A DNA stretch of 63,045 nt, filler included, from Dirinaria sp. TL-2023a (lineage: Eukaryota): the NCBI GenBank assembly GCA_051941275.1. It is 54 parts of 54 records of this genome, joined end to end, with 100 filler letters (N's around TTAATTAATTAA, not from the genome) between each part and the next. Parts side by side here need not be neighbours in the genome. Positions count along the whole stretch, not along the records: positions 8,364 to 9,455 come from JAVEBF010003001.1; 53 more parts are not named here. One strand, written 5' to 3'. Below the pieces are notes generated by a model that was given only the letters and a program-made list of their open reading frames with translations, searched no databases and was not told the origin of the DNA. This document shows positions 484 through 55,030 of this stretch, piece after piece. The translations under genes were made by a program, and so were the position numbers. Position 1 is the stretch's first letter. Every line of letters begins with the position of its first letter.

Positions 484-613
484 TGTCAAAGACCCAACCT
501 TGGTTAGATAGGTTTCCCAATGGTAAAAGTCCCGGCAGCGCCAAAAGACTAACTAAACCAAGTCAAGGGACTTGGTGCCTATCTTACTACTTAGGTGTTC
601 CAGGGTCGTAACA
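484..613 (-). mobile_element. Solo LTR, family A (130 bp), 5-bp TSD GAGTT
   Basis: TGTCAAAGACCC...GGGTCGTAACA termini; GAGTT at 479-483 and 614-618; near-identical copies elsewhere in window. Confidence 0.92.
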
Positions 614-8363: not shown

Positions 8364-9020
8364 AATGAAGAAACGAATAAAATAGTCAACGAGATACACA
8401 AATATTCGCTGCTCGATCAATTGACGTGTGAATCTGCTGTCAGAGCAGCGCTGATTCAAGAATAAACTCGCGCAGAATGACGAAGAAAGTAAAAAGAAGA
8501 CATCAACGAAGCTCATTATCGCGCGTTGACGTTTACGATAATTTAGCGTCATATGCGATTTCACGATGATCGAACGAAATTACACAGCGTTTTGTTTACA
8601 CAGTTGAGGACGAGTAAAATAGAATTCAATCAATTTTTAAACGAGCGACTCGTCTCTGAAGTGATCACAGAGATCTGCGACTGCGAACAAGATCGCATAA
8701 CAGTCAGACACGTGTTATTAACGTGTTCTACGTGAAAACAGAAGAGATTAGAGATGCAACGAAGAATATCAAAGACCCAACCTTGGTTAGATAGGTTTCC
8801 CAATGGTAAAAGTCCCGGCAGCGCCAAAAGACTAACTAAACCAAGTCAAGGGACTTGATGCCTATCTTACTACTTAGGTGTTCCAGGGTCGTAATAAAGA
8901 ACGAATAATATCACAGATGTGAGAAAGCTGCTCGATAGCGTCACTGATGTCACAGCGACGATACGCATAATTTTATTCACTGATTTACTCAGTTAGTTTC
9001 AGACGACTGCTTTTTCTTCA
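8364..9020 (+). pseudogene. Tad-like LINE ORF2 C-terminus (Cys/His motif), mutated, interrupted by family A LTR
   Basis: QLRTSKIEFNQFLNER...CDCEQDRITVRHVLLTCST* resembles QLRTGKIG...CxC...HVLLxCP; Gly/Pro/Trp lost. Confidence 0.75.
8767..8896 (-). mobile_element. Solo LTR, family A, 5-bp TSD AAGAA
   Basis: 130 bp, 3 differences from 484-613; AAGAA at 8762-8766 and 8897-8901. Confidence 0.92.
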
Positions 9021-9039
9021 GAATCTTAGACCCATAGAG

Positions 9040-9158
9040 TCCTCGCATGAAGGATTTTCGAGTAACTGAGCATCTTTAACAAATATTTGCGATATAAAAT
9101 TCCTCTCAGCTCTCGAATCAATAAGACATTTAATCTCGCGAATATCATGAGACGTGTT
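9040..9158 (-). pseudogene. Ty3/gypsy aspartic protease relic
   Basis: CLIDSRAERNFIS resembles LIDSGAxxNFIS. Confidence 0.55.
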
Positions 9159-9455
9159 TGTTACGACCCTGGAACACCTAAGTAGTAAGATAGGCATCAA
9201 GTCCCTTGACTTGGTTTAGTTAGTCTTTTGACGCTGCCGGGACTTTTACCATTGGGAAATCTATCTAACCAAGGTTGAGTCTTTGACATTAAACCAAGTC
9301 AACCCGGTCGCAAGATTCTGAGTTCGATTCTCAGCTCGAACGCTTGAAGGATTTTCGGGTTTCGGCGAGGACTTGTGACTGAGAGCTTGTCTAAGCTCGG
9401 GGCGATTACTGTTCTCTGTCAATAACACTTTAGACTCTCTTTGAAACTCCGCGCG
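9159..9455 (+). mobile_element. Family A 5' LTR (9159-9288) plus start of internal region with self-complementary PBS (9290-9302)
   Basis: No TSD after LTR; TAAACCAAGTCAA is the exact reverse complement of LTR 9206-9218; hairpin CTGAG-TTCGATT-CTCAG at 9318-9334. Confidence 0.8.
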
Positions 9456-14302: not shown

Positions 14303-15385
14303 GTATAAGATTTCTGATAATTCGAATTCGACTTTACAACGTTTATTTGATCTGAGTTTGACGTCGATTCAGCGATAATTTGCAATCGCTGAGAAGAAAT
14401 ATTCATCGTAGTATTGATCATTTTTTGCGAGTTCGCTCGAAAAGACTGAGAATAGTATTGCTGTTTTGACTGTAAATAATTGAACTGAAACTGATTTTGA
14501 CGATTATTGATATTATACTGATCGTAGAATGATCGATTGTCATCAGACTGTCTGTCTTATTCAGTGTGACTGTCTTGATCTTGAGCAGTATCACGCATGA
14601 CTTTAGCTTCTTTGACTCATCAATCATTTTTGAATTTCTTCATCTGTTTGAGAAATTCGTTCATCGTTGTGCTCTCGAAAAACATTCTCAGATTCTCGAG
14701 TCGAACTTTCATGTTTATATCATTGTAGATGATATCAAGCTGATTGAGAACGTTCATTTTGACATCTCTGACATTTCTCAATATCTTCTGAGCGTATTCT
14801 CTTGACTCTCTACGATTGACGACATCGCGAACGATGTATCGCTCGCGAAAAACATTTTGTAAAGCAACATTATGAGAGACTCGAAACTGTTCGAGCAAAA
14901 GACTCGATCATTTCGTCAACTCGTCGATTGCTTCGAGCATGATCATTCTAATCATTCTACGCTCATTGTTCGATAGCTTTTCTGTGTATCATTTCTGCGA
15001 TGTGTCGACTAAGCTCAATCACAGATTATTTCTCATCTTTTGTGTTTCTCTGATAACGATCATCTCTTTGACCCTGATAAAAAAGAGATGTATGTCTCTA
15101 AAATAGATATTCTTGTCGTCATATTCCATTTCTGAGACTTCGCTCGCCACGATCTTCTCATCATAATTGAGATCAAAGAATTCTAGCTTCGCAGAATTTC
15201 ATTTGATTTTATCGAAGTTATCACGATAAATCTCATCATCGTGATCGTTATCGAATTCGTCGTTATCGTCAGATTCATCGTTACTCGATGAATCATCAGA
15301 TGATCGTCGTTCTTGACGTAGAATGATGCTCTGCATTTCTTGTAGTTGCTGAGTGAACTGAGTCGTCATTTGTCTCATGATCGCC
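14303..15385 (-). pseudogene. Ty3/gypsy gag relic, hypermutated
   Basis: *NSAKLEFFDL...YFRDIHLF...RERYIVRDVVNRRESREYAQKILR resembles fungal gypsy gag; CC/GG nearly absent. Confidence 0.65.
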
Positions 15386-16566: not shown

Positions 16567-19027
16567 NNNNNNNNNNNNNNNNNNNNNNNNNNNNNNNNNN
16601 NNNNNNNNNNTTAATTAATTAANNNNNNNNNNNNNNNNNNNNNNNNNNNNNNNNNNNNNNNNNNNNGAAATGGACTGCTTCTACTGGAAACATCGGCGTC
16701 AACTTCGGCACCTACCCGTACACCTTCTACAGCCTGCATTTATACTCGAGTGACGATTGCAAGGGGGATATGGGCACGATCTGGCCGGATAAAGGAAGGA
16801 AGTTGGGGCCCACGAGGCATGCGAACCACGGGCCGAATACGTGCAATGCGACGGTGGCCAATTGGCAGGGGATTAAGAGTGTGGAGAGGTGGAGGTAGGG
16901 ATGTGTACGGTTTGTATGGTGTTCGCTCTTCCTTTTTTTTTTTTTTGGTGGATGGTAAAACTTAGATATTCGTCCCCACCAAGCCGGAAAAACCGTTAGG
17001 GTTATCGCAGAATTAATATTGAATCACCGCACACACCATGATGTACTGTATCTTGCAGGCAGAAGCGGACAAAGCATCAAAACAGCAATTACACATCGCG
17101 GTCGATCTCGCGGAGGTGAAGCAAGAGGTGGAGCAGAAGAATGCCAGAATACGATGCTATAATAGGCAATGACCGAATTCGATAGAATAATAGATCGCAA
17201 GACACAAGATCTAAGATGGGCGCAAAAAAAAGAAAGCAGCGACGTATATGTGAAAGAGATTAATTGTCAGAGAAATGAATTTCAGCCACGAATGCTCCTC
17301 GTGATTTTTTCACAATGTATGCTGACGCGATTTCCGCGCCCAACTGAATAGTTCGTTCCCCCCCCCCTTTGATTCCTGCCTCTTGACTTAGATTAACATT
17401 TCCCTACCTCACATAGACCAACCGGTATCTATCTATCTATCAATCAGAGATAGCTCTCAAATTACACAGAAGCAGAAATTCCGTCATGCATGCATGCATG
17501 CATGATTCCCGAAGAACGAATCTTCTGAGAAATGTGAGCCGACTGTTTGACACGCCAAATGAAATTTTTTTTTTTTTTTTGGGGTGGGGGGGAAAGGAAG
17601 GAAGCAAGAGACGAAAAAACGAATCGATCGTTGATCTTCCTTTTGAAGCTAAAAAAAAGCAAAAGCAAAAGCAAAGCAGTAGTAAACAATGGAGAGGACT
17701 TGAAGAGGCATCATAATCATAGAGATATGCATTGCATTGCAATAACGNNNNNNNNNNNNNNNNNNNNNNNNNNNNNNNNNNNNNNNNNNNNTTAATTAAT
17801 TAANNNNNNNNNNNNNNNNNNNNNNNNNNNNNNNNNNNNNNNNNNNNGCCGGCGTCGGCGCCAGCGCTTCGCTGATGGCCCGGAACAAAGACCAAAACCA
17901 ACAAGGCAGCGCATTCGACTTCAGCCTGACATTCATGGGCGAAACGCTCAGCTACAAGAAAAACCAGGTCGTCTCCGTCGCCAAGGAGGTGGGGAAAGAG
18001 ATCAAAGATGGGGCTGCTGGGGCAGCGGCGGCGGCGGGGTCGAAAGCCGTTGGCGGAGGGCCGAAGTGAGGTTCTGCTGGGAAGGAGGCAATGGTGATGA
18101 TTACTTTATGGGGAGTGGTGGTTACGTTTAGAAGGATTTAATGTCGGTTGCGGGTTGGTGATTGGGGGGGGGTTTTATAGCGCTGGCGTTTTTCCCTTTT
18201 TTTCTCTTCTCCCTCTTTTTTTTTTGGGGTGATTCATAAGCATCCAGTATGAGCGAATCTTCAGTTTTTAAAGAGGAAAACAATTAGATTATAGACTTGT
18301 TTTTGTTTTCGCGAATGCATTAGATCTATCTATGTAGATACCCCGTCAGAGGGGCCGGGGCCGGGGGAACATACCTTATATATAATACCTTACCCTCTTA
18401 ACTTCCTATACAGTATCCAATCCAAATATAGATGTAATCTTTTGTTCCCCTCCCCTCTCTCTCTTATAAGCCAATTTATGAGATCTAGATCTTGATCCAG
18501 ATCCCCCCGTCCTACAGGAAAGGGGTTGGGAGAAACGAAAATTCCTTCCTCTCAATCTCACGATATTCACTATACTGTCGCTGTTCTGTGCTTTTCCCCT
18601 CTTATTAATTAAATCAGGTAGGTCCTCGTTCTCGATAACTATATTTTATCCAAGCAAATTTTCCAAGCGGGTTTTAAAAAAAAAAAAAAAAAAAATAAAA
18701 AGGGGGGGGAATATACCTCCATCTGCAATCCAGTCCTTCCTTGCTCCTCACCCCCTGCCTCTCTCCCAAAACCCCCCTCACGCACACACCAAAGCCAAAG
18801 TTCCCCAAACCGCGATATAAGGCGAACGAACCATCTGTTCATAACCACAGCACCACGTCCCCCCTTTAGCCCCCCAATACATACCGTACGTGATATTTAA
18901 AAGTCGAGTGCAGGGTAAACCTAGATCNNNNNNNNNNNNNNNNNNNNNNNNNNNNNNNNNNNNNNNNNNNNTTAATTAATTAANNNNNNNNNNNNNNNNN
19001 NNNNNNNNNNNNNNNNNNNNNNNNNNN

Positions 19028-19982: not shown

Positions 19983-20889
19983 AAGCGTGGAGTATGATCT
20001 GACAACAGTGCATTCGCTACTGGCATGGGGAAACGAGTATAGTTGATGATAGGGGTGATGATGATCTAGGTAAATTTGCGCAGAGCCGTTCACTGTGACT
20101 AAGTGCCNNNNNNNNNNNNNNNNNNNNNNNNNNNNNNNNNNNNNNNNNNNNTTAATTAATTAANNNNNNNNNNNNNNNNNNNNNNNNNNNNNNNNNNNNN
20201 NNNNNNNTTTAATTAGTCATCATCAATAGTTAGTATTTTAGTTGGAGCTTTTGTTCCAAGAAAATGCATCCTGCTTCTACCCATAAGAACGTGCACCTTG
20301 CTTGGTACCAACCATTTTCTGACGATCTATCGATGCGATGACGATATGGCCCTGAAGCAGTGATCACGTTGTTATTAAGTTATTTGTCAATCACATTGTC
20401 AATCACATTGTACGAAATTCTGAGAGGCCACCGCTATACTGAGGCCCTTGTTGTTACCTACACCCTCCTTACCATACTTCTCCTACCGCTACCTACCCCA
20501 ATCCCCCTATCGAGGCCAATTGTATCTATTTCATACTAATAACCCTGAACTCTACATCATCACCGCATACTCCAAAGCCTTTGACCACGGAGCTGACTGA
20601 TGTTTTTAAAGAAATCCGATTTTACACCTTCTCTCTGAATTCCTCAAGTTCCTCATATTCCGCCTTCAGTTCGAATAACCCCGCATCTGCCGACCTTGTA
20701 CCTTTCGATTCTGTGAACTTGTGGACAGAATTGCCTTACAATCACCGTACCGTCTCAGAGAACGAGAAACGTCAATCTTATTTATCGTCGTTGTTAACGT
20801 TGAATTCAATTCTCAACTCAGCTAACATCACTTCTTCACTCAATTTAGCGAACACAATCTCGCTTTATTATTCGATTTCTATTATCTCA

Positions 20890-21286
20890 ATCATGACTGT
20901 TTACAATTTCACGAGTCTCACGTTCATTTTCTGTGAAACGTTTGCGAGAAATAACACGATATCTGCTGCTGGATGACTAAAAAAGTATGATCACGAGATG
21001 TCAAAATACAAATCGAATGCAATCTTCATAATATTCTCAGTCATTTATTTGAAAATCTTAGCATGTTTCTCATCGACGACGTCGCGAAATGATCAGAGTT
21101 TCATTCGAAGACAGTACGTCTTTTGAGTGAAGACTTATTTGATCAAATCACGATGAAAATCTTCAGATCTTTTCTCTGCGAACGATTTTCATTCAAAGCG
21201 ATTGAGATAATCTCGATTCTCTTCGACGTAGAGCTGAAGAGACTCAAACAAAAAAAGAATGAATCTCTACAAGCATACTACAAGAG
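20890..21286 (+). pseudogene. Ty3/gypsy gag relic
   Basis: FRSFLCERFS...LKQKKNESLQAYY resembles the gag LxQxxxESxxxY motif; in-frame TGA stops. Confidence 0.6.
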
Positions 21287-21386: not shown

Positions 21387-22313
21387 GTAATTCGCTAATA
21401 TTGAATAGTGAATATCAATTCTTGATCGTGATAGCGTTCAGCTTTCGATAGTCAACACATAGACGTAATGTTTCGTTCTTCTTGAGTACAAAAAGAATCG
21501 AGTATTCTGTCGCTGATTGCGATTTTCGTATAAAATTCTTTCTTAGATTTTTCTTCAAATACTGTTTAAGAACTTCTAGTTCTTTTTCTGATAGAGCATA
21601 GATAGATTCAAACGTTGAATTCGTGTCTAACATGAGTCGTATTTCACGATCTCACGTTTGATGTTTAGATAAAATTTTGCTGTCTTTCTCTTTATGAAAT
21701 AGATGATCTTACTGTCGATAAATATTTGACACTCTGCGCGAAGATTTACGTTTCTTAGTCGTATCTTCATGATATTTCGAAGATGCGTTAATTTCTTTCT
21801 GAACTCTGATTTCTTGATTCTGCTGATCTTTGCTGATATCTGTCGAGTCGGATCCCTTTGAGTCATTCTTATTCGAAGCTGCTAGTTCGCGTCTAGTAGT
21901 CTTCTCATCTGTCGTCGTTCTCTGTTGACGTACAGATTGAGTTGTGATTACGCATTCACATCTCTCAAACTTGAGTACTCTCTTCTTTCAATCGATACTG
22001 AGATTGTGTTTCTTTAATCAAAACATTCTCAATACAATATCGTGACTAATCATGCTAACGATATCAAAAGTAAACTTCTCACGATGCTGTTGAATAGTCG
22101 TCGTTAGTGATATCGTTTCTCTATTCACTCTTTTTTTGTTGTTTATCAATAACTGTTCGTCGACTGTTACTAGATCGTAGACATCATTCTTGATCTGAGT
22201 AACGAATTCATGTTGCTCTGTCAGATGTTCTGTCATAAAATTCTCTGTTGCGTCTGAATCGATCAATATCACTGATCGTTTCTCGTGAATTCATATTAAC
22301 GTTTTGAGAATGT
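21387..22313 (-). pseudogene. Ty3/gypsy pol relic (protease and RT N-terminus)
   Basis: LIDSDATENFM protease; IYALSEKELEVLKQYL...ILFVLKKNETLRLCVDYRKLNAITIKN RT. Confidence 0.9.
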
Positions 22314-22403
22314 TGTCAAAGATCCAACCTTGGTTAGATAGGTTTCCCAATGCTAAAAGTCCCGGCAGCGTCAAAAGACTAACTAAATCAAGTCAAGGGA
22401 CTT
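22314..22403 (-). mobile_element. Truncated family A LTR abutting telomere
   Basis: Matches first 90 bp of 484-613 with 4 differences. Confidence 0.9.
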
Positions 22404-22406
22404 TTC

Positions 22407-22465
22407 TTAGGGTTAGGGTTAGGGTTAGGGTTAGGGTTAGGGTTAGGGTTAGGGTTAGGGTTAGG
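22407..22465 (+). repeat. Telomeric (TTAGGG)n array running to contig end
   Basis: 9 perfect units plus TTAGG; G-rich strand oriented toward contig end. Confidence 0.93.
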
Positions 22466-24343
22466 NNNNNNNNNNNNNNNNNNNNNNNNNNNNNNNNNNN
22501 NNNNNNNNNTTAATTAATTAANNNNNNNNNNNNNNNNNNNNNNNNNNNNNNNNNNNNNNNNNNNNAGCAAAACATGCAGATCAATCAGCTCAATATGAAC
22601 ATGGTGAATCAGACCCTTATGATGCAGAATCAACAGAATGTGGCGCTCAATCAAGCAAACATGCAAGCGATGAACAACCCGGCGATGAATCCTGCTGCTT
22701 TCGGGATGGTGGGGGGCGCTCCCATTGGCGCTATGTGTTGATCATAATCTGTTGCAAATCTCCGATTCAATAAGCATGTCCGTTTCTTCGGTTATCTGGA
22801 ATACACATGGATGGCGCTCTTTTCACGGAGGAATATTCTTGGTTAGAGATTCATCAAAATATTCCAATACCGATAGCAATCAAGCTAGCTCGAAACTCCC
22901 ACCAGTCCACCCATGCTTCCTCGTCAATCTACAGCCATAGAACCTCAATCTCTCCGACGTTGACGAGAATTACGAGACATGTGGTGGTAGACAAGCACGT
23001 CTCTGTACATAAGTATCGAATGATACTCATCTCTTGGTAGAGCACAACGCGCAACATTTCGCTTTCCCTGGCAGAACACAGTGCCTTGTTCGGTAACCCA
23101 ATAGAGAGACCACCAAAGTCCGCTTTCCAATCTTACGTACCGACTCATCGTTGAATTTCTTTCGCTATCGCCATTTCGTCGCGGGCTTACCTTGTCAGCC
23201 TTCACATTGACTGGGATAGCCTGCGACCGTATTTGGGCCGCCTTACTTGGTATGTCGGTGAGTTTTCTCATATCCATTAGTCCTACTCAGCCTCGTCCTC
23301 TCAAGTCTCGACCGCATAGCCGATCAGGCCTCCGAGGGCATGTTGGATTAATGTCGTTCCGTCAACGCATGATTGCGGACGGAGACAGCAGCCTAGTGAT
23401 AGCTGACGACGGCGATCACAACGGCGCCATCATCATCGACGATTGAGTCTCATTTTTTCCTCGACCATCACGTATCGTAATGTCTCGGATTCTGAGTGGA
23501 CATGATCTTCATGGGAAGCCATCGCTCCGGAGTTTCTTCTTTGGTCAATACACACACACGTACCTTCTTCTTCTGAATTCAGTGATCATTTGATCTATTT
23601 TAGGGAGGTCCTGGGCGTGGCGAATCGAGATCCACATACTNNNNNNNNNNNNNNNNNNNNNNNNNNNNNNNNNNNNNNNNNNNNTTAATTAATTAANNNN
23701 NNNNNNNNNNNNNNNNNNNNNNNNNNNNNNNNNNNNNNNNGCGTTCCTCAGTCCGTGATGATAAGAAAGATCAGTGAGAAAAGAGGCAGAGGCAGACGAA
23801 AATGCTTCAGGCCTATACCATTCTTCGCCGACTTCGTCTTGGAATGTTTCATCGGCGGAACTCCAGAGGCTGTTAGACTCCCTCCTGAAGCAAGTCGATT
23901 AGTTGGAGGTAGCAATAACGATGGCTGGAAACTGAGTGCCGTCAGTCTACTGTAACGCTATCGAGCAGAAATAGTTGGCACATATAAATCAGCCTGTGAA
24001 AGCCGAGGACGAAGGCAATGATGCAGTTGGATTAGAGAGCGATAATGATGAGGAAGATTATGTAGATGTGTATAAGGGTGATAAAGACGAGGATGAAGAT
24101 AGTAATGAAATATTCGAGAAAGAGTGAAGACGAATATGGAGATTGCGGTGAAGATGACGATGACAGTGAAGAAGTGAAAGAAGCCAAGGACGAAGATGAC
24201 CATGAAGACGACGAAATGAGTGAGGATGATTCTAATGAGAAAATCGAATGCGACAGTGCACAAAGTAAGCGGAGGAAAACAATAACGTAGTTGTGGCGGG
24301 TGAAGGATGATGTTGTGTTTGGTTTCCTGTCTAGGTTTGCAAG

Positions 24344-24557
24344 TGTCATGGTGCTAAGTTACATAGTCCTCGATGGAGTCTGCAAAGCCTAACGTGGTTT
24401 GCATGTGCGGCTAGGGGGGTTGCTAATGTTATATACCAGGGCAACACCATTCCCCTTCTTCTTTTCTGATCTTTCGTCTTGTACAATAAACCTAGTCATA
24501 CCTTAATAGTCAATCCCGATACCTTCTGTTTAGATGGTCCCAGCCCAGTCCCTGACA
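24344..24557 (+). mobile_element. Short LTR (214 bp)
   Basis: TGTCA...TGACA termini, TATATA and AATAAA in order; flanks GCAAG/AGAAA give no TSD. Confidence 0.65.
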
Positions 24558-24815
24558 AGAAAATATAAAAAACATAACTCGAACAGATAAAACTTTTTTT
24601 GAGATTTTTATCAAGATATTTCTTTAATTTCTGAAATTTATAATCAGAAATAAAATAAATTCGACTCTTGAATAATTGATTGAAATTATCGATAAGCTCA
24701 ATTTTGTGATCATAAAATTTATGAGAAAATAATTCTTTTGTTTTTTTAGAATCGAACGCTTTAGTTAAATTTTTATATTTCGAGAAAATTAGTTTAATAA
24801 TATCTTTCATTGTTA
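24558..24815 (-). pseudogene. Ty3/gypsy pol relic upstream of RT core
   Basis: ELFSHKFYDHKIEL...LKKYLDKNLKKSFI resembles LPPHRPYDHKIEL...LKKYLDENLxKGFI. Confidence 0.75.
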
Positions 24816-24915: not shown

Positions 24916-25093
24916 CACCAAAGCCGCGTCCGATCCGGCTCAGCCCCGCAGGCCATGGCGGCCATCCGCCACACCACCCTGTTCGTGACCCGCGAGCAGG
25001 CCGGATCGCTGCGCACCACCCGCGCCGCCTCGGCCGGAGACCGATGCTCGACCACCGAACCAGCCCTCAGGAGGGCTTCTTCGAATGACCCTG
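24916..25093 (+). mobile_element. Bacterial ISAs1-family right end (transposase C-terminal remnant)
   Basis: QSRVRSGSAPQAMAAIRH resembles ISAs1 C-terminus; ends ...GAATGACCCTG (CCCTG terminus typical of ISAs1); high GC. Confidence 0.6.
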
Positions 25094-25112
25094 ACAACCG
25101 GGCCGTCGTCGG

Positions 25113-25141
25113 TTGACAGGTCGACCGGCTACGTTTACGGC
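25113..25141 (+). promoter_or_regulatory. Putative sigma70 promoter of tRNA gene
   Basis: TTGACA-17 bp-TACGGC just upstream of tRNA; -10 lacking the final T is common in Alphaproteobacteria. Confidence 0.5.
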
Positions 25142-25151
25142 TCCTTTGGCG

Positions 25152-25236
25152 GCCCTGGTGGCGGAATTGGTAGACGCGCTGGTTTCAGGTACCAGTGGGT
25201 AACACCGTGGAGGTTCGAGTCCTCTCCAGGGCACCA
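25152..25236 (+). tRNA. Bacterial tRNA-Leu(CAG)
   Basis: GCCCTGG/CCAGGGC acceptor stem, CTGGT-TTCAGGT-ACCAG anticodon arm, long variable arm, GGTTCGAGTCC, encoded CCA. Confidence 0.97.
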
Positions 25237-25330
25237 AGACTTCGGGAGTAATCTCGTTGTTTTTCGGTAGCTTAGCTATAGTTTCGAAGCCGTCTTGAGC
25301 ACCTCGTGGTAACACACAAGGTAGCACAGG

Positions 25331-25853
25331 ATGGCTTTTGTCGTTGAAAGAGGTCGGTCTTCGTTCCTTGTGCTTCGATATGTGGAACAGAAGCCTAATG
25401 GCTCTTTCCAATATCGGCGGAGGATTCCTGAGGACGTCCAGCCTGCCTATGGAGGCAAAGCATTCTTCGTCAAAAGTTTGAGGCGAGACGCTGATCAGAT
25501 ATCGAGACTCTCAGCTCGACTAACTGAAAGCCTTGATCATGAGTGGCACCGTCTTAGGTTACATACAGGGGCAGTAAATGAGCTAGCCTCAGCTCATTCT
25601 ATAACTGCCGATGACAATCAGAGTGTAAAAGAAGTTGCTCAAGAGACATGCGACAATCCTCTGCCTCGTTGTAGAACAAACAATTCTCCAGCTCTCCAGA
25701 ATGGTGTTTTGACGCTCTCTGAGGCCCTTACTATTTATCTCAAATACCATCGCTGTGGAGATGAAGAAAAATTCATTGCTGACAACAAACGAGCGATCAT
25801 GGCTGTAATCAACCAGATCGGTGATTTACCGATTGACGCCTACACACGCCTAA
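25331..25853 (+). pseudogene. DUF6538-type integrase N-terminus, truncated by IS insertion
   Basis: FQYRRRIPEDVQPAYGGKAFFVKSL motif; directly downstream of tRNA with GC drop; frame ends inside IS end. Confidence 0.7.
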
Positions 25854-25990
25854 GAGCCTGACCCAGAAGCCTACGATCGCGCGAGTCGCCGGATGCCGAA
25901 CTGGATGGCAGCGAGCGTGATGAAGGCCAGCAGGGTGGAGGCGAGGTTCTCGAAGTCCTTGGCCAGACGCCGGTTCCGGCCCAGCCAGGA
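25854..25990 (-). mobile_element. IS5-family element end with transposase C-terminus (25871-25990)
   Basis: Minus-strand SWLGRNRRLAKDFENLASTLLAFITLAAIQFGIRRLARS*; IR GAGCCTGACCCAGAAG preceded by TAA. Confidence 0.85.
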
Positions 25991-37309: not shown

Positions 37310-38014
37310 TTTTTGCCTTGAGGCTCCCACCCCTAACCCCATGTTCCGTGATAAATATTTAGTTCCGTTACGGATTTCGGGCCTGTCGTCGATTACTCAA
37401 GAGAACGGCCTCGAAAATGGGAAGGGAACCGACTTCAAAATACACAGGAGTATAGTGGCAATGGAGTCTTGTTCGAAGCTAGTGCTGGATCGTGATGCAG
37501 ATGAAGATGGATGTTTTGATGACAAGTTAGGGACGACTGCAACTAACCTCTTCAAAGAAATCCAAATTTGAGCTAGGCATCTGTTGCGGCCGACCTTGAC
37601 AGCCTGGAAAACTATATGTAAGAGCTCGGAAGCATTGGCATTGATCCTGAACTATGGATGTTCGTCTGAGGGAGTATCTCTACAAGNNNNNNNNNNNNNN
37701 NNNNNNNNNNNNNNNNNNNNNNNNNNNNNNTTAATTAATTAANNNNNNNNNNNNNNNNNNNNNNNNNNNNNNNNNNNNNNNNNNNNTGCTTCTATGATTA
37801 TATTTTTTTAATTTTTATGCTTTTATTTTGCTTTTTTTCGCATTGCTTTGCTTCAAAAATCGAACATCGAGCAGATCTTTGACTTTGTCGCTCTCTCTGC
37901 TCTCTTTCTATAATAACTCATTTCCGTCAACGTCGTCTTATTCTTAGTATTCAGAAAATCGTCATTAGAATCATGACAGATTTTTTTCTACAATCTAAAT
38001 ATTTTTTTCACATA

Positions 38015-38288
38015 TGTCATGGCCTGCACAGCGCTCATAGACATATGAGTACTACTAGACTAGAATACTAAGTATGAGAAAGAAAAAGAAGAAAAGAGAA
38101 AGAATACTAAGTACAGAAATCAAATAAAGGATCGAGCAATACACGGACCGAAGACGCTAACTCGATCAAGCGAAAATAGCAACATCACTGCCAAAATAAT
38201 CTGATATACCCAACTCAGGGTCCTCAGAGTCATGCTTCAGGGTTCAGACTAGTCACGTGAACTAATTCTCTAGGTCAGATTCATGACA
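38015..38288. mobile_element. Solo LTR, family B (274 bp), TSD ACATA
   Basis: TGTCATG...CATGACA termini; ACATA at 38010-38014 and 38289-38293. Confidence 0.88.
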
Positions 38289-39462
38289 ACATACGTTTAT
38301 ATTTTCTCAATTTCTCTGCGTCTTTCTTTGCGCATTCGTATCTCTCGCGTCTCGCGATTTATTTTATCGAACTCAGTTATGATGACATTGTATTTTTCAT
38401 TCTCTGTTTTTTTATCTGCTGTTTTTTCTTTTCTTTTTTTTTTTTGTTTCGCGAGATTCGCGAGAACGATCGCGAGAACGATCGCGAAAACGATCGCGAG
38501 AGATATTTTCTGCTTCTGTTTACGCATACTCAAAATCGAAAAACAATCGTCGTGTAAAACGTTTTAGCGTTTACTGACGTTTATTCAAAACATTTCGTGA
38601 ACGTTTTTTTGATCTCATTATTGCAGAGTTTTTTATGTTGAGTAAAAAATCTTTATCAGACTCTGATATTTGCAGTTCTGCATTTGCATTTGAGTCAGAA
38701 GAATAAATATAATGACGCTCGAGCTTTTTAAAATATTAGTGATAATGAACATTTGATAATTTCAATCGATTATCATCTGTCAGACATTGCTCGATTTTAT
38801 GAACACACGATAAATTTATAATAATTCTAAAAATGTGACTGCGTGAAGACANNNNNNNNNNNNNNNNNNNNNNNNNNNNNNNNNNNNNNNNNNNNTTAAT
38901 TAATTAANNNNNNNNNNNNNNNNNNNNNNNNNNNNNNNNNNNNNNNNNNNNAAGAACGTGCACGCTACGTAGTGCGAGTAATAAAAGCAGACCGCAATAC
39001 TGCAGAACGGAATTGCTCGTGAATAACGCTTTTCATCACGACTTCTGCTTCAGATATCGAATAAAGTAGCTTTGTCGCTTTCAAGTAGTCATTTATCTGA
39101 AAGACTTTCATCAATAGATTCGAGATGATGATCAGAGATGACGTGGATGTCAGAGTGACGGTGTGACAATGTCACGACGACAGCGAGATAAAAGAAAATC
39201 ATCAAACTTTAGAACACAGTACTCGAAACAACAATGAAATGCGGCAACACGATAGAATAAAAGTCAAATCGTGATGTATTTACAATGTCTTCGAAGAGAT
39301 ATGCAATCGAAGCGAAGTAGAACGGTGAAGCAGACGCGGAGTTCCCGACTCACTCAATTGACAACGAGAACTAATGTACTGAATAATTAGTACTGATGTA
39401 TGAGTTGACAATTACACTGATGTTAAGTTTAAAACAAAGAACGAACGTGTTGATGTTATCAA

Positions 39463-39684
39463 TGTTATGAGAGCCGATCAAAAGATACTAAAATTTGAGA
39501 AAAAGAAGATAAAGTTCAATTCCTGCTCAAAACTATCTAATATGCTATATGAACTAGTTACATGCGAAAGAAAAGGCAGTCACCAGGGACGAAAGTCCCG
39601 GGTCCATGGACCCTGGTCCTATAAATATGGTCCTGGTCCTATGACTAAAGTCCTTAGTGCCATAATACCCATGATATCATAATA
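39463..39684. mobile_element. Short LTR, family E (222 bp)
   Basis: TGTTATGA...TCATAATA termini; GC-retaining island in mutated DNA; no TSD. Confidence 0.55.
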
Positions 39685-40014
39685 ATTTCACTCTTTCGAC
39701 GATTCTGATTTTTTGTTTTTCAGTCTGTTTTTTAGAACCTTTGAGATCAATCGCTCGATGTTTGTTTTTGCATGTTTCGCATTTTTAGCTGTTCTTTTTC
39801 TTGATATTAGAGCAGATTTCTGTGCGATGATTCTGTGCGCAGTGAGCGCATTGTTGACTATTCTTGCACGCGTAGATTAGGTGCTCATATTCTTGACATT
39901 TCAAGCACTGCTTCAGTCTGCTCTTTTTGTCGTAGTACTGAATCGTTTTGATGTCGAATTCAATCGTTATATCTTATTGAATCAAACGATTTGCTATCTC
40001 AGCGCTCGTAACTC
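39685..40014 (-). pseudogene. Tad-like LINE ORF1 zinc-knuckle region, mutated
   Basis: Reverse-complement homolog of 51683-51970. Confidence 0.8.
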
Positions 40015-42236: not shown

Positions 42237-42762
42237 GGGATTTCTGAACCCCTTTACGTACGCGAGTTGTAGAATGCATGAGGTAGTTTGATGTTTTGCT
42301 ATCGGTACTCGTACTTTTTGGAGAGGCTCGAGGANNNNNNNNNNNNNNNNNNNNNNNNNNNNNNNNNNNNNNNNNNNNTTAATTAATTAANNNNNNNNNN
42401 NNNNNNNNNNNNNNNNNNNNNNNNNNNNNNNNNNCATCAGTATCAGAGCAGTCAGACTGACAAGCAAAAATCGATGTCGATTGAGACGAGATCGACATTC
42501 TGACACTCAATTCGTCGATTTCGACTCATCGTCGAAAATTGACTTGACGTTCAGTTTCTCGAGTAATAGATCAAAATCTCTATTGACATGTGATTCGTAT
42601 CGAAGCATCAGATCGACAGATGGAAAGCTCGAGCGCTCGCAATATAAAATCAGTCATTTGTTAATAGGTCATGTACTTGTTCGACAGTTCTCTTTCTCTA
42701 GATTCTCGTTGCAAGCTGAAACTCTTAATTAATGTTCGTGCAGAGTAGAGAATTATCAAACT

Positions 42763-43009
42763 TATTATGACCTGCACAGCGCTCATAGGTATATGAGTAC
42801 TACTAGACCAGAACACTAAGTATAAGGAAGAAAAGAAGGAAAAAACCAGAAGAAGCAGAAGTATAAGTACAGGAGGTGCAAGCAACAAATAGGGGGTCGG
42901 GTATGCGAGTAACACGCCTAGGAGGGTATAGTGCAAAACCCCTTAATATCAGAGTCCTCAGGGTCCTCCAGGGTTCACACATAGGTGCTTTCAGGTCAGA
43001 TTCATGACA
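42763..43009. mobile_element. Solo LTR, family B (247 bp), TSD AAACT
   Basis: Homologous to 38015-38288; AAACT at 42758-42762 and 43010-43014. Confidence 0.88.
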
Positions 43010-44751
43010 AAACTCTGAAAGTCATGCGAGCTGAGTTTGATTGAAGCGAGTTAATCAATTCAAGCTCATCTATACAGGAAATATCAAAAGATCGATCAGC
43101 AGCTCAGTCTCAAATCATGTTAACGTGCATCGACAGCGCAGCAAATTGAAATTTGCTCACGAACGTATAACGTTTATTTAATTAATTTTTGTCGCGAGAA
43201 GCACAGCTTTAATCATGACTTTCTATCGTTGAAATTATATTCACAGTCATATCGATTGCTCACTGCTTGTGACAAGCAAGTGACTATATCAAATGAGTTA
43301 GAAAACGAGTCAAAGCGTCAATCAGATGTTAGCTGAAACACACTTAAAAGCAGTGGCAAAATGTAGAGATTTCGATGAAGCGTGAATGAGAAGACGACGA
43401 TTGAGAGATAGCGTAGAAAACGAGTCGTGAAAAAGAATGCAGATGATATTGTGCTGATGAAGATACGAAGCTAGAAGTAGAACATATCGTGATNNNNNNN
43501 NNNNNNNNNNNNNNNNNNNNNNNNNNNNNNNNNNNNNTTAATTAATTAANNNNNNNNNNNNNNNNNNNNNNNNNNNNNNNNNNNNNNNNNNNNGTATATA
43601 GCCTTGTAAAATAAATAAGAAGATGAAAATAAGGATGCGAAGGATTGAAAAGCTACGTCATCATACTGACTGGTACGCAAAATGCAATTCAATATGCACC
43701 TATTCGAACAAATGGCTATTCGTATCTCGGTGTTGTCTGCATTCCTTGCATCTTAGGTGATCGTATAAACTTCCTACAGCTCCACTTTTCGGGCTGCCTC
43801 CTTTTCGAGATATAGCCGACTGGCTCTGGTTAGTCCCAAATGCTGTGCATATTTCTGCGTGTCGAAGATCGAAAGTCAAAATCTTGGGCAGATCCCGAAT
43901 CCTGAGCCCTTGAAAAAAATCCATGACTGCTACTGGCTGAAGCCAGTAGGATGTGGATTGTGCCCGCTCTGATTGGGTATGCTACGATAAGGTGGGATCT
44001 CAGCAGCCCCGCCGAGGGGTACTTGTAGCCTGCATCTTGACGTTGAGCGCAGATATCGCTGCAGATTAGGATTCAACAGGTGGTGTGCAAGAGTCGAATC
44101 TACAGTACTTTAGCTTTCTGGCCCATGTTGGCCCATGCTGCCAAGCCTCCGCTGCCAAGCCTCCTCACCGCAAGCCTAACCGTTTCGAGTGGCATAACCA
44201 ACATCAGGTCCAAATCCTTCGATTGTGCCGACCTAAGGTACTCAGCATCACTACTCAGCATTAACTCGTCAGTCCTCAAATCGCGATGAAAAAAAAAAAG
44301 AAAAAAAAAAAAGAAAAAAAAAAAAAAGATGAAAAAGGCTATGAAGCGTTCTGGAAACGAGCTACGTGCTAGTTTGCCAATGAGATTTCATGTCCTTTCC
44401 AAAATTTCACGACAGTAACGAATGTTGCCGTTCTATCCGGTCAATCCCATGTTTCATGTTCAAAGCTCTAGGGCTTTCTTGTCCCCTCGGCGTACTTGGA
44501 GACATCCTCCAAAAGCGCCTGTATGAGAACTACTTTGACTTTTGTACCCCCAAATCACGTTCCCGAGCGCGCAAGTCTGTGGTTACCCCATGACAGATTC
44601 TTCAAGTTCGCAATCGTGATCCACTGTTGCGGTTCGGGCTGCGTATTGAGCNNNNNNNNNNNNNNNNNNNNNNNNNNNNNNNNNNNNNNNNNNNNTTAAT
44701 TAATTAANNNNNNNNNNNNNNNNNNNNNNNNNNNNNNNNNNNNNNNNNNNN

Positions 44752-45076
44752 CTAGTGACTTATTACGTGAGATGAGTGAAAGCTTTCTCAAGGTTCTCTG
44801 AGGTCAGTAAAACTCAAGCGAATACTCGGAAACTTTTAGATGATTTAATGTCATCGCTCTATAAGCGCTGCGTAGGCTTCAGTACAATATATCCGCAATA
44901 CTGTCAAGTGATTGCGGGGTCGTATAGAATAAAGAGATCATTCTCATCCCGAGGACTTGAGTTTCTCAGTAATTAGTCTTGATAGTCATAGACTTCTTGT
45001 TTCTCATACTGTTGCACATTGTCACACAACCTAGCTAGTACTTGATTTTCATAAGGAACTTCTTACTAGCATAACA
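44752..45076. mobile_element. LTR family D, truncated by contig edge
   Basis: Reverse complement of 51971-52295; ends CATAACA. Confidence 0.8.
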
Positions 45077-45809
45077 CAGCGATGCGACTCAGAAACGAAA
45101 AACTTCGAGACAAAACACATCAATGTTAAATCGAGAAAATGCGACTATAGAACTACAGAAATGAACGACGTGCTGCGAATATCACTGCTGAATGCATCAA
45201 CAAAAAGAGTGCGACAATACGATCAATCAGTTAATACATGACGCAATCGACGACATGAAATTACTCACAGAACAGTGTTATGAGAACAAAACGTGTCGAT
45301 TGACGTACATAACATGAGTCTCAGAAGAAATATATAGTCAACAAAAATACAAAAATCGAACAATCAGACACACGATAAATAAATTACGAAAAGCAGTACA
45401 AAAAAACAATTGAAACATTTCAAAATCGCAGCGATCAGATGTTACGACACAGAATGTGCAACACATCAACAGAAAAAGATCAAACACGCAAACGAACATT
45501 GATCAAATTGCTACGACGACGTATGTATGATTCATTATCAAGAAAAACATGAAGTCAACTTATTTTCGCGCGAATCACGAGAAAAGAACTTGAGAAACGA
45601 TAAAATTTTTCAGTAAAAAACGTACTGAGAGAGTGCAACGTAATAGTTTAGAAACAGATTAATATAACAGAGCATGTTTACACTCTCAAAACGTCAATAT
45701 GAATTAACGAAAAACGATCAACGACAATAATCGATTTAGACGCAACAGAAAATTTTATGACAGAACATCTAGCAGAGCAACACGAGTTCGTTACTCAAAC
45801 TAAGAATAA
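45077..45809 (+). pseudogene. Ty3/gypsy gag C-terminus/protease relic
   Basis: CYDDVCMIHYQEK His/Cys repeats; IIDLDATENFMTEHLAEQHEFVTQ nearly matches 22018-22272. Confidence 0.75.
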
Positions 45810-50529: not shown

Positions 50530-50670
50530 AGTATAGATACAGAAGGTGCAAGCAACAAATAGGGGGTCGGGTATGCGGGTAAACAAATATCAGGGTCCTC
50601 CAGGGTCCTAAGGGTCCTCCAAGGCAGGCACGTGACCACACATAGGTGCTCCCAGGTCAGGTTCATGACA
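50530..50670. mobile_element. LTR family B, truncated
   Basis: Matches 42870-43009 region; ends GGTTCATGACA. Confidence 0.8.
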
Positions 50671-50879
50671 CAGATGATAGTCGAGAATGAATATCGAAAT
50701 ATCGCGACGTTGAAGAATAAAAAAAAGACGATTCAGAGAAACTCTGTCTCTGATTTTTTCGAAATGTCTATTTCAGATTCTTTGATTGACGTCGCGTCGA
50801 AATAATTAATTTTTCTCGATCTTGATAACAATTGATCGCTTATCTCTTTTGCTCCCTTTGATGAAATTGTCACAAGAGA

Positions 50880-51582
50880 TTCTGACAGTTCTCAAGATTC
50901 TTAAATGATTTTCACGTATTGTCTTTCGTAGATCATCTCTTTTATTTAACAAGATATTTCTGATTTCTCTGTTTCAATATTTTTTCGATTTCGAATTCGT
51001 TCTTCTTTTGTGATTCGAAAAAAAAGATGTTCTGTATAAACGTACTGAGATCGACTGATTTCAATAACGATATATGAAATACATTGTTAATTCGTGCGTC
51101 TTTCGACAATTTCAATTCAAACGTTATCGATTCTCTGACTCGTTTAATGAAAAATGATTCTATTTTAACATGATCAAGTTTTTTGTTTGATTTTCTAGTT
51201 TTTAGATTTTTGATCAACAAATAAATCTTATCTCTCTTTTTCAGCTGAGATGTCATTTTTTTTTCTTGTTTTGATAATAGAATAATCGATTCTGTATTTT
51301 AACGATATTTTTATGTATTTTTCTAAATGTTTCGACTCTTTTTTTCGTCGCATTCGTAAACACATTTGTTTTCTGATGTTCGAATAAGTTTGATTCTCTG
51401 TCATAATTCGCAAAGAATGAAGTCGTTTTCGTAATATCGAAGTGCTTTGAGTTGAGTGTCAATTGTGCCATAAATAACAACGATATTCAATTGCTATACG
51501 TGTTGTTGATATAATGTCGCAAGTACTATTTTAGACTCTGGTTCGTTCTATTCGTTTATTCATCAGTCTCTGAATGATATGT
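50880..51582 (-). pseudogene. Chromovirus integrase C-terminus and chromodomain relic
   Basis: LFMAQLTLNS, KKLDHVKIESFFI (GPF-like), INNVFHISLLK, EFEIEKILKQRNQKYLVK*. Confidence 0.9.
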
Positions 51583-51682: not shown

Positions 51683-51970
51683 AACGATTGAATTCGACAT
51701 CAAGACGATTCAGTACTACGACAGAGAGAGCAGACTGAAGCAGTGCTTGAAGTGTCAAAAATATGAGCATCTAATTTACGCGTGCAAGAATAGTCAACAA
51801 TGCGCTCACTGCGCACAGAATCATCGCACAGAAATCTGCTCTAACATCAAGAAAAAGGACAGCTGAAAATGTGAAGCATGCAAAAGCAAACATCGAGCGT
51901 TTGATCTCAGATGTTCTAAAAGACAGACTGAAAAACAAAAAATCAGAGTCGTCGAAAGAGTGAGATCGAC
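51683..51970 (+). pseudogene. Tad-like LINE ORF1 with three Cys/His knuckles, mutated
   Basis: CLKCQKYEHLIYAC, CAHCAQNHRTEIC, CEACKSKHRAFDLRC. Confidence 0.85.
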
Positions 51971-52321
51971 TGTTATGCTAGTAAGAAGTTCCTTATGGAA
52001 ATCAAGTACTAGCTAGGTTATGTGGCAATGTGCAACAGTATGAGAAACAAGAAGTCTATGACTATCAAGACTAATTACTGAGGAACTCAAGTCCTCGGGA
52101 TGAGAATGGCCTCTTTATTCTATACGACCCCGCAATCACTTGACAGTATTGCGGATATATTGTACTGAAGTCTACGCAGCGCTTATAGAGCGATGACATC
52201 AACCCATCTAGAAGTTTCCGAGTATCCGCTTGGGTCCTACTGACCTCAGAGAACCTTGGGAAAGCTTTCACCCATCTCACGTAATAAGTCACTAGATCGT
52301 AAGGGTCAAAGTATCATGACA
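51971..52321. mobile_element. LTR family D (351 bp)
   Basis: TGTTATG...CATGACA termini; second copy at 44752-45076; no TSD. Confidence 0.8.
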
Positions 52322-52946
52322 AACATGCAGCGAGACGTTTATTATTTCAAGTATCGTAATTGATGACGAGAGGGTCAGATATGAGTTCTTCTACATAATG
52401 CATTCGGCGCTGCCGTTCTATTACTCATTCCGACAGAGCAGCATACTCAAGAAGGACATTCGATTAGCAGCAAGCAGTAAGAATTTCTTCTCGTCTGTGA
52501 AGTATCATTGTTAATGTTGCTTGATAGATACGTGAAAATCAAATCTAGCGACCGTGAGTCGTTCGTCAGAGCTCTGCAGAGACTACGGCTCGATCTAAAA
52601 AAGATGATTTTCGAGCTAGATTATTCTATCGAAATTCTCAAAGATGACATTGCACACTTACTTGAACGACTTCAGCAGCCGCGTATGTCTTCAGAAGCTG
52701 AAGGTCGAACGAGCTCAAGATAATTCATGATGCNNNNNNNNNNNNNNNNNNNNNNNNNNNNNNNNNNNNNNNNNNNNTTAATTAATTAANNNNNNNNNNN
52801 NNNNNNNNNNNNNNNNNNNNNNNNNNNNNNNNNCACAAGGGCAGAGAAACATCATGTTGCGGCAATTGCGAAGATTATACTCGTCCGCAAGCATCGCGAG
52901 TGTGATCTGAAGTTTACATTCTCAGCTAGATGAAGTGATAATATAG

Positions 52947-53163
52947 TGTTAGAACCGGTGCAGAGCTCTGGTCAACGCAGATATGATTAACTAAGGATAT
53001 TATTACTAAGGAAAGAAGAAGAAGGAAAACTAGATACAATAGAGGGTCCCGGGTATATATGCGTGTGTGCGGGTGTCGGGTAAACACCCCGGGTTAGCGC
53101 ATTACCCCTGAGAACCCTGAGAGGTGTTGCCCCAGGTAGTATACCAGGTGCATGCTCGTAACA
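52947..53163 (-). mobile_element. LTR family C (217 bp)
   Basis: TGTTA...TAACA termini, TATATA; partial copies at 54885-55030 and 58330-58470; no TSD. Confidence 0.85.
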
Positions 53164-53982: not shown

Positions 53983-54544
53983 ACGAAAAAATCGCGCTGT
54001 TGTTGATATTAAAGAACTCAACAAGATAACAGTCATTGATTTTTATTCGTTATCTCTGCAAACAGATATCATCGCACAGATAACAGAATGCAAATACATA
54101 ATCGTCATAAACGTCGTCGATTAGTTTTATCAATGACGCGTGCGCGTGACAGATCGATACAAATTGACAGTAGTATCGCATCGAGATCAGAAGCAATACA
54201 ACGTTGCATTTATGAGATTCAAAAATTCATCTTCATATGTACAACGGCAAATCGATATCTTATTACAATCTTATCGTGTATTTGTCAAGACATATATGAA
54301 CGATTTAGTTATATTCAGCGAAATTTTCGAGAAACATTTAAAGCATTTGCGCGTTGTATTTACATTATTGAATCGTAAAAAGATTACATTGTCGCTCAAA
54401 AAGTCGTTTTTAGATTACTCGTCGATAATCTTACTGAGTCAAAAGATTGATGTCTTTGATTTGATCATCGCGACGAACAAAATAGTCGTTATTTAACGTC
54501 TTCAATTCTCGCGCAAACTTGCTGATTTAAAGCTCTATTTGAGA
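53983..54544 (+). pseudogene. Ty3/gypsy reverse transcriptase core relic
   Basis: RAVVDIKELNK, KLTVVSHR, FKNSSSYVQRQID, YMND (mutated YxDD). Confidence 0.9.
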
Positions 54545-54884
54545 TGTCACGAGTTTAATGCGATAGTGTTGAAACTCTCTCGAAGGAATCTCGAAAACGT
54601 TAACGAACGAGATTTCTATTTAAATCTCGCTCTCATGTATCTTAGTTCTGCATAGCTAATATTCTCGACAATATCATATTTATTTATGCAGTCTAAATAT
54701 CTGACATAATATTAGCTATCTCTTCAGAATCAGTCGACGAACTGTACTCTAAAAAAAGTTTTTCCGTCAATCTCTCGAGTCAGATTGCTAAAATATCACA
54801 GTAAACTTTTGCAAATGAGCTCAAATTTTTTCTTCATGTCGTCACTGCGTAAGTCGACAGCTTCGAAAAAATCAGTTTCGAAAG

Positions 54885-55030
54885 TATTAGAATCGGTGCA
54901 GAGCAAGTCAATGCAGATATAGTTAACTAAGAATATTATCACTAAGAAAGAAAGAAGAAGAAAAACTAGATACAATAGAGGATCTCGAGTATATATGCGT
55001 GTGTGCGAGTGTCGGGTAAACATCTCAATC
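54885..55030 (-). mobile_element. LTR family C, truncated, mutated
   Basis: Homologous to 52947-53085. Confidence 0.8.

Follow-up and report, generated by a model that had tools for sequence, protein, structure and literature searches.

Repeat-induced point mutation (RIP) represents the textbook genome defense of fungi, and its extent across the fungi is gauged by indices that are based on CpA. In Neurospora crassa, the contexts of the mutated cytosine rank in the order CpA > CpT > CpG > CpC. The window of 63,045 nucleotides analyzed here, which is the whole stretch of DNA taken from the assembly GCA_051941275.1 of Dirinaria sp. TL-2023a, contains retrotransposon relics that were hypermutated at the last of these contexts. 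The direction of the change is CC>TC, with GG>GA on the other strand, so that the 5' C of CpC is the changed base. The process works like RIP but shows neither the CpA preference nor the index values of canonical RIP.

According to the available parts of the published sources, RIP-like defenses in a kingdom-wide survey of 1,239 fungal genomes have the CpA preference in common and show activity in few clades (PMC12543289), the RIP of Paecilomyces variotii, shown in crosses, is directed to CpA (PMC6300479), and the ripped DNA of Cladonia rangiformis has a GC content of 10-20% (PMC12542154). The MATE element of Aspergillus nidulans is mutated at CpG and then at CpA, and Microbotryum and other Pucciniomycotina exhibit TpCpG hypermutation (Hood et al.), both as cited in the available text of the RIPCAL paper, which defines a CpC index and, in that text, names only CpA, CpG, CpT, and TpCpG cases (PMC2621366). 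The accessible excerpts report no CpC dominance for Xanthoria (PMC13486527), for Endocarpon (PMC3897900), in an ascomycete survey with RIPper (PMC7882544), or in pseudogenes of the ribosomal DNA (PMC5555474). The GC-poor isochores of Blastomyces could not be judged as a similar case, since the excerpts contain no context data (PMC4595289, PMC11540331). No report of CpC-dominant RIP in any species resulted from the literature search, as far as the texts were accessible. Prior art might be contained in a survey published by Clutterbuck in 2011 (Fungal Genet Biol), which reportedly covered the dinucleotide contexts in 49 ascomycetes.

The window is composed of 54 contigs of 1043-1099 bp, ordered by falling length, and is not one locus; it samples 54 kb of sequence only. 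Dinucleotide counts were expressed as observed/expected ratios (O/E) normalized for base composition, and depletion was given as a z value computed against 500 mononucleotide shuffles. Nine of the 54 contigs, which carry retrotransposon relics, displayed z values of -5.2 to -9.9 for CC+GG, with for example 5, 7, and 13 dinucleotides observed at shuffle expectations of 73.3, 61.4, and 68.9. CC and GG were each depleted in every strongly affected contig, indicating that both strands had been mutated. The contig 14303-15385 possesses 207 C and 192 G, yet only 5 CC and 0 GG (about 73-74 expected, z = -9.9). In the relics at 21387-22313 and 53983-54544, 2 CC and 1 GG remained at 57 expected and 0 CC and 1 GG at 32 expected, respectively. 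The initial annotation, made by inspection of the sequence, had described these three long relics as nearly devoid of CC and GG but with CpG and CpA retained. This description was correct: CG was present at 1.7-2.3 times the expectation, CA+TG approximately at the expectation, and TGG/CCA occurred 0-2 times compared to 29-89 occurrences of TGA/TCA.

The neighborhood of the lost cytosine was evaluated in the four worst contigs. The O/E of NCC was 0.14-0.17 for any 5' base and that of CCN was 0.06-0.24. The values for the other dinucleotides were 1.07 for CA, 0.99 for CT/AG, 1.73 for CG, and 1.50 for TC/GA, and TCG was the most over-represented trinucleotide with an O/E of 2.57. In the window relics, the CA value thus indicated no CpA>TpA preference of the Neurospora type, and the CG value indicated none of the CpG loss that characterizes the Pucciniomycotina process or CpG decay. 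The 34 clean contigs had a CC O/E of 0.99, and the gene contigs (ORC4, Puf, WD40, AAA) had z values of only -3.0 to -0.7, so that the comparison of transposon and gene contigs, proposed initially as a check, found the depletion in the relics and not in the genes. The AT content, named at the same time as a possible sole cause, does not account for the loss of CC because the O/E values are already normalized for composition and because the AT-rich contig 23741-24815 (GC content of 0.39) harbored 76 CC+GG at 84 expected. Several contigs were mosaics, in which CC-free sequence bordered on normal sequence within 1 kb, as visible in sliding O/E profiles of 300 nt. Elements that were mutated in part gave no sign of strand-specific patches.

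Standard RIP indices scored the relics as not mutated by RIP, in agreement with the prediction that these indices would under-call the process. The nine most depleted contigs had values of 0.43-0.80 for TpA/ApT, 0.95-1.41 for (CpA+TpG)/(ApC+GpT), and -0.15 to -0.98 for the composite index. The ratio (CC+GG)/(TC+GA) was 0.02-0.09 in the four worst contigs, and values of 0.46-1.33 were obtained for the 31 contigs with z > -2.

That the 5' C of CpC was the mutated base, as claimed initially, follows from the excess of TC/GA, which was not accompanied by an excess of CT/AG, and from the stop codon that had to be read through to reopen the frames, which was TGA and not TAG. A CC>TC rule on either strand can produce only TGA stops, which originate from TGG. 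When TGA was read as tryptophan, the longest frame increased from 95 to 275 codons in 14303-15385, from 92 to 251 codons in 21387-22465, and from 68 to 195 codons in 44752-45809, and no such lengthening was obtained by read-through of TAA or TAG. These three frames contained 4-6 TGA and 0-1 TGG. Neither proline nor glycine was encoded in relic frames of 275, 195, 175, and 133 codons, compared to 7-17 Pro, 17-25 Gly, 2-5 TGG, and no TGA in four gene open reading frames (ORFs). The relics are long terminal repeat (LTR) retrotransposons of the Ty3/gypsy group, because the read-through frames matched the Pfam domains RVP_2, RVT_1, Chromo, and SH3_Tf2-1, and apparently also retrotransposons of the LINE (long interspersed nuclear element) type, both probably from a fungus of the Pezizomycotina.

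The amino acids that were replaced could be identified in the reverse transcriptase (RT) relic at 53984-54508, which was aligned with 13 intact homologous polyproteins and scored at the columns conserved in these. All 13 conserved Pro, Gly, and Trp columns had been changed, and 71 of the 98 other conserved columns had been kept. The five prolines were replaced by serine in four cases (TCG, TCT, TCT, TCG) and by leucine in one case (CTC), the seven glycines by aspartate three times (GAT) and once each by glutamate (GAA), asparagine (AAT), serine (AGT), and arginine (AGA), and the sole conserved tryptophan codon had become TGA, which agrees with the initially noticed change of TGG to TGA. When four intact Ty3 elements were converted in silico by CC>TC and GG>GA, the result was a GC content of 0.378 and O/E values of 1.08 for CA, 1.69 for CG, 1.74 for TC, and 0.52 for TA, and the same measures in the window relics were 0.353, 1.07, 1.73, 1.50, and 0.65, respectively. 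The single rule CC>TC reproduces the composition of the relics. Its outcome is a change of Pro to Ser, Leu, or Phe and of Gly to Asp, Glu, Asn, Ser, Arg, or Lys, and a GC content that levels off at about 0.32-0.38.

Few repeats are common to contigs of the 54-kb sample. Six pairs of copies within the window were compared, with the 3' neighbor restored to C if either copy had C at this position. Sites that differed were 32 of 87 CpC, 21 of 160 CpT, 14 of 144 CpA, and 4 of 82 CpG; for CpC against the other C sites (39/386), this gave an odds ratio of 5.2 (p = 1e-8). The differences were 71 transitions and 5 transversions. In the pair of family C, with motifs at 53042 and 54978, CpC accounted for 9 of 13 transitions, and in the pair of family D, with motifs at 44771 and 52269, for 12 of 16 when the start of the contig 44752-45809 was compared with 51971-52295. 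In the pairs of the window, the alignment-based context spectrum, which had been suggested as a check, was not dominated by CpA, and both families supported the context that had been read from their motifs.

The same signature was present in public data. A search with the RT relic retrieved 85 polyproteins of 612-2000 amino acids, 65 of them with <0.5% Pro, <0.5% Gly, and 1.0-2.5% Trp; 6 were intermediate and 14 normal in Pro and Gly. When 1.84 billion representatives were scanned exhaustively with HMMER, the best 150 matches included 61 Pro/Gly-free entries, 17 that were intermediate, and 72 normal ones. Dozens of database "proteins" with lengths that reach about 2000 amino acids (P0122-P0205, P0338-P0483) contained virtually no Pro and Gly but normal Trp. 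The Pro/Gly-free entries are CC>TC-saturated Ty3/gypsy relics that are open only with TGA as Trp and were apparently called under a code with TGA = Trp.

On the DNA level, 15 of 79 metagenome loci had a CC+GG O/E of <=0.10 in the element, a further 7 were <0.4, and nine had the canonical CpA-type RIP pattern with a CA O/E of <=0.27 and a composite index of >1.2, proportions that are not estimates of prevalence, since the loci were retrieved with 13 of the Pro/Gly-free proteins as query. The nine canonical loci served as positive control for the method. Other loci were intact with ORFs of >2000 codons under the standard code. All 22 CC-depleted loci were located on contigs named JAABU... or JAABVA..., and the DNA identity of the window relic to the metagenome loci was only 67-71%, so that these loci come from other species. 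In the CC-type loci, frames with TGA = W comprised 364-2147 codons compared to 122-278 codons with the standard code (except for a flanking gene of 503 codons in L050) and contained 5-31 TGA, and the saturated loci had <=1 TGG and <=3 Pro or Gly codons. The locus L050 was normal for 4 kb (O/E of about 1, GC content of 0.42-0.51) and then had an O/E of <=0.02 for 12 kb. Its normal part encodes a flavin adenine dinucleotide (FAD) oxidoreductase with 84% identity to a protein of Penicillium, and this single gene tentatively suggests a Eurotiales-like source. In L046, a CC-free block enclosed an element of about 10 kb that was lightly mutated (O/E 0.5-1.0).

Two metagenome copies with 92.5% identity, L006 and L050, differed at 141 of 165 CpC, 105 of 347 CpG, 46 of 593 CpT, and 15 of 555 CpA. 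Among the 4342 compared sites, there were 307 transitions and 11 transversions, and of the 314 C/T sites, 294 had the C in L006. The order of contexts in this lineage is CpC >> CpG > CpT > CpA. A combined CpC and CpG variant is present in L025 (JAABUJ010000940.1) and L026 (JAABUU010006856.1), with O/E values of 0.03-0.05 for CC, 0.00 for CG, and 1.40 for CA, and another variant in L075, with 0.00 for CC, 3.0 for CG, and a GC content of 0.20. Singleton polarization of two metagenome families was rejected as misleading because most copies are saturated; the majority state at CpC is the derived T, which mimics a T>C change, and pairwise counts with restored 3' neighbor were used instead. Seven Ty3/gypsy loci (L048, L049, L052, L055, L059, L062, and L074) were of the canonical CpA type with a CA O/E of 0.04-0.09 and a composite index of >1.2, and some canonical loci occurred in the same contig series as CC-free ones. 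Fungi with the one or the other kind of hypermutation thus appear to be represented among the similarly named contigs.

The interval in which the initial annotation had placed the hypermutation, 8767-9288, lies in a 526-bp element with two inverted arms of 134 nt (8765-8898 and 9157-9290), which are 96% complementary and 258 nt apart. The arms belong to a repeat, family A, with a unit of about 131 nt that runs TG...CA, and which recurs at 57426-57457. Alignment of 484-613, 8765-8898, the reverse complement of 9157-9290, and 22313-22403 reproduced the nine variable sites as described, six CC>TC or GG>GA, two CpA>TpA, and one G/C transversion. Six of the eight transitions were at CpC, which makes up 35% of the C/G sites of the unit (p = 0.025). 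Taken alone, this bias is suggestive and not decisive. The claimed CpC bias was thus found, but not the claimed hypermutation of the interval, which had 41 CC+GG at 43 expected and was almost unmutated. In the 401 nt directly upstream of the element, 8364-8764, 0 CC and 1 GG remained at 32 expected. The strongest evidence is therefore located beside and beyond 8767-9288.

With RIP of Neurospora crassa and most Pezizomycotina, the process shares C:G>T:A changes on both strands, specificity by the 3' neighbor, sparing of genes, graded copies, young elements nested in saturated blocks, and sharp borders. It differs in its target, CpC, the least used context in Neurospora, and in leaving CpA untouched. 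Moreover, the loss of GC in the relics stops at about 0.32-0.38, whereas 10-20% GC is given for Cladonia in the available part of the paper (PMC12542154), and the standard indices are negative. The RIP-like mutation in Eurotiales is also a transposon-directed C>T process of ascomycetes, and the metagenome relatives also lose CpG, as a second target, with one of their contigs, that of L050, carrying the gene with a close match in Penicillium; no CpC dominance is reported there in the accessible sources, and CpG is fully spared in the window. The TpCpG process of the Pucciniomycotina is likewise RIP-like, uses a context other than CpA, and is missed by the standard indices, but it belongs to basidiomycetes, targets CpG, and needs a 5' T, whereas the relics show no dependence on the 5' base and an excess of TCG.

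These data describe a transition process on double-stranded transposon DNA with a specificity given by the 3' base only. It came near to saturation while other kinds of change stayed rare, it mutated transposon DNA and spared the genes, and in the related metagenome contigs it left sharp-bordered blocks with graded and nested copies. Probably, a RIP-like defense hypermutated the relics at CpC, using a RID/Masc1- or DIM-2-type enzyme that acted on duplicated DNA in the sexual phase. The target is a cytosine with a cytosine as 3' neighbor, leading from CpC to TpC and from GpG to GpA on the other strand. In keeping with the RID-like system that the initial annotation had proposed, the enzyme may be a homologue of the RID/Masc1-type (or DIM-2-type) cytosine methyltransferases with a target-recognition part that reads CpC instead of CpA. 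Duplication of a sequence would be the trigger, and the process would act before meiosis and through successive sexual cycles. Repeats as short as family A, with its 131-nt unit, would largely escape because they may be below a length threshold. Enzymes of the DNA methyltransferase (DNMT) type depend on the 3' neighbor, while AID/APOBEC deaminases read the 5' side. A DNMT-type enzyme is favored because the 3' neighbor decides and the 5' neighbor is indifferent. No RID/DIM-2 homologue was among the ORFs scanned in the 54 contigs.

The 3' dependence is also an argument against a dedicated DNA deaminase not of the DNMT type, AID/APOBEC-like or another one acting on double strands, which would be aimed at heterochromatin or transposons independently of duplication. 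Saturation with sharp borders would also be expected from chromatin-directed targeting, but such a deaminase is rather unlikely, considering that the 3' neighbor decides all, the 5' neighbor has no effect, and both strands are equally mutated. Somewhat less likely than this is methylation of CpC in transposons followed by slow spontaneous deamination to T, which would be ordinary decay and not active hypermutation. The loss of CpG in metagenome relatives, with an O/E of 0.00 in L025 and L026, would fit to such a decay. A slow process should also bring frameshifts and other stops, but 141 of 165 CpC in the pair L006/L050 changed with only 11 transversions in 4342 sites, and frames stayed open with TGA read-through for 275 codons in the window and for up to 2147 codons in L011.

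In APOBEC3G editing, it is the 3' C of CC that is altered, on one cDNA strand only, and TGG is converted to TAG. Editing of retrotransposon cDNA at reverse transcription by a similar enzyme would also yield C>T changes within CC and stops in place of Trp codons, and most of the relics are indeed retroelements. This explanation is nevertheless very improbable, and the contrast with APOBEC3G drawn in the initial annotation was correct: the 5' C was changed and TGG became TGA, not TAG; both CC and GG were lost on the same strand; and DNA other than retroelements was affected, including the non-coding repeat of family A with the same bias and 12 kb of element flank that are also CC-free. Least credible of all is the absence of any mutational process, with the pattern resulting from a native composition or a sequencing or assembly artifact, or from damage by ultraviolet (UV) light. 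In favor of this, the contigs belong to the tail end of a draft assembly, are short, and do not all have the same origin. Against an artifact or native composition, the frames were kept without indels and conserved Pro, Gly, and Trp were specifically replaced, the gene contigs of the same assembly were normal, borders occurred within single contigs, and the pattern recurred in independent public assemblies. UV mutations hit the 3' base of a dipyrimidine and do so genome-wide, different from what was found here.

Several observations weigh against a CpC-reading RIP as the complete explanation. Family A with its at least four copies was barely mutated, which requires the assumption of a length threshold; its near-intact state could be compatible with such a threshold as in Neurospora, but also with a young age. 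The preference for CpC is not absolute, and there is a weaker background of other transitions, as evident from two of the pairs in which CpC was already lost in both copies (12 CpT and 2 CpA of 17 transitions; 6 CpT and 6 CpA of 16) and from the TAA/TAG stops, two in the frame of the RT relic (175 codons) and three in the LINE-like frame (133 codons). CpG clearly serves as a second target in the relatives from metagenomes, so that the spectrum varies from lineage to lineage. The assembly is mixed and contains more than one organism. None of the relic contigs of the window carries a recognizable fungal or conserved gene, so that the relics can be assigned to their presumed host only by co-assembly and by analogy with the related metagenome loci.

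The main organism of the assembly is, judged by sequence similarity, a fungus of the Pezizomycotina nearest to the Lecanoromycetes. Long ORFs of several contigs contain the eukaryotic housekeeping domains ORC4_C, CPL/PUF, WD40, Rtf2, and Syja_N, and the placement follows from the ORC4 fragment, the best named relatives of which are metagenome-assembled lichen fungi (Circinaria, Pyrenodesmia, Xylographa, and Psora; 53-58% identity). Identity to Aspergillus was 44-46%, and no close relative was present in the database searched. The chances are about even that an unrecognized and widespread form of RIP reads CpC in at least two distant lineages of the Pezizomycotina, one near the Lecanoromycetes and one Eurotiales-like, has been missed by every CpA-based index, and has seeded the databases with at least 61 clusters of Pro/Gly-free pseudo-polyproteins.

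If the process is essentially CpC-specific in a lineage, RIP is under-called wherever this variant acts. A CpC-reading form of RIP would also be a natural switch of specificity from which it could be learned how a RID-type or other enzyme reads its target, and it would account for AT-rich compartments that halt at about 32-38% GC. Moreover, it creates an annotation trap. Because CC>TC creates only TGA stops, relic frames, which reach up to about 2000 codons and are open only with TGA as a sense codon, are deposited in databases as Pro/Gly-free "proteins." Such relics would imitate a genetic code with TGA = Trp or a recoded genome if this reading holds true.

The positions of the relics and repeats are listed in Table 1.

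Table 1. Relics and repeat copies in the window (positions along the window; "." in the strand column, no strand assigned)
Feature	Position	Strand	Basis and remarks
Family A, solo copy	484..613	+	Alignment; least mutated
LINE-type retrotransposon, C-terminal relic	8364..8764	+	Read by eye without Pfam search; 133 codons with 0 Pro, 0 Gly, 2 TGA, 0 TGG
Family A, left arm	8765..8898	+	Inverted repeat, alignment; lightly mutated
Family A, right arm, inverted	9157..9290	-	Most mutated of three full copies; 4 differences to 484-613, all CpC
Retrotransposon relic read as gag-like	14303..15385	-	No Pfam hit; most depleted; 275-codon frame with 6 TGA, 0 TGG, 0 Pro, 0 Gly
CC-free part of contig	20700..21286	.	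Start approximate; first 500 nt normal; 300-nt sliding O/E from 1.1 to 0.1
Ty3/gypsy protease-RT relic	21387..22312	-	RVP_2, E = 4.6e-6; 315 codons with 0 Pro, 2 Gly, 5 TGA, 1 TGG
Family A, copy cut short, telomere-capped	22313..22403	+	Alignment
CC-depleted relic contig	37787..38851	.	No domain recognized; CC+GG O/E 0.24, z = -6.8
Mosaic relic, CC-free stretches around CC-normal patch	38952..40014	.	284-nt repeat in common with 51683-51966
Mosaic relic contig	42435..43493	.	Sliding profile; O/E 0.40, z = -6.6
Relic contig, first 325 nt are family D (mutated copy)	44752..45809	+	O/E 0.19, z = -7.7; 195-codon frame with 0 Pro, 0 Gly
Ty3/gypsy (chromovirus) relic, integrase C-terminus and chromodomain	50530..51582	-	Chromo, E = 2.3e-7; SH3_Tf2-1, E = 2.2e-6
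Mosaic relic contig	51683..52733	.	Holds the 284-nt repeat and family D, each as the less mutated copy
Family C, less mutated copy	52971..53086	+	Repeat comparison
Ty3/gypsy reverse transcriptase relic, RT at 53984-54508	53983..55030	+	RVT_1, E = 5.8e-8; 1 CC and 6 GG, z = -8.3
Family C, mutated copy	54907-55022		At end of contig 53983-55030

In the contig 50530-51582, the CC-free sequence begins at about 50830. Patches with normal CC, 300-400 nt in length, interrupted otherwise CC-free relic contigs at about 39350-39750, 42635-43035, 50530-50830, and 51900-52300, and some of these patches were short repeats common to contigs (77-325 nt, 70-95% identical). Such patches may represent short insertions of young age or fragments of LTRs that escaped the process. 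Beside the Ty3/gypsy protease-RT relic, (TTAGGG)x9.8 at 22407-22465 forms the end of a contig and was attached midway within a family A unit. This appears to be a chromosome end that was healed inside a repeat. The GGG-rich telomere repeat itself was unmutated.

The contigs of the window are joined by 100-nt linkers, N44-TTAATTAATTAA-N44, the first at 1100-1199 and the following ones every ~1.18 kb. A periodic "repeat" of ~1,185 bp, which repeat finders indicated as a family of 91 copies with hundreds of inverted pairs, consisted of these linkers and has no biological meaning. On the contig 24916-25990, with a GC content of 0.55, a tRNA-Leu (CAG) lies at 25152-25236, and behind it an ORF at 25325-25858 encodes a DUF6538 domain; this arrangement was read as a bacterial integration site. 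In the contig 17848-18927, CC+GG was in excess, with 178 observed at 120 expected (z = +7.1), which is the opposite of the situation in the relics.

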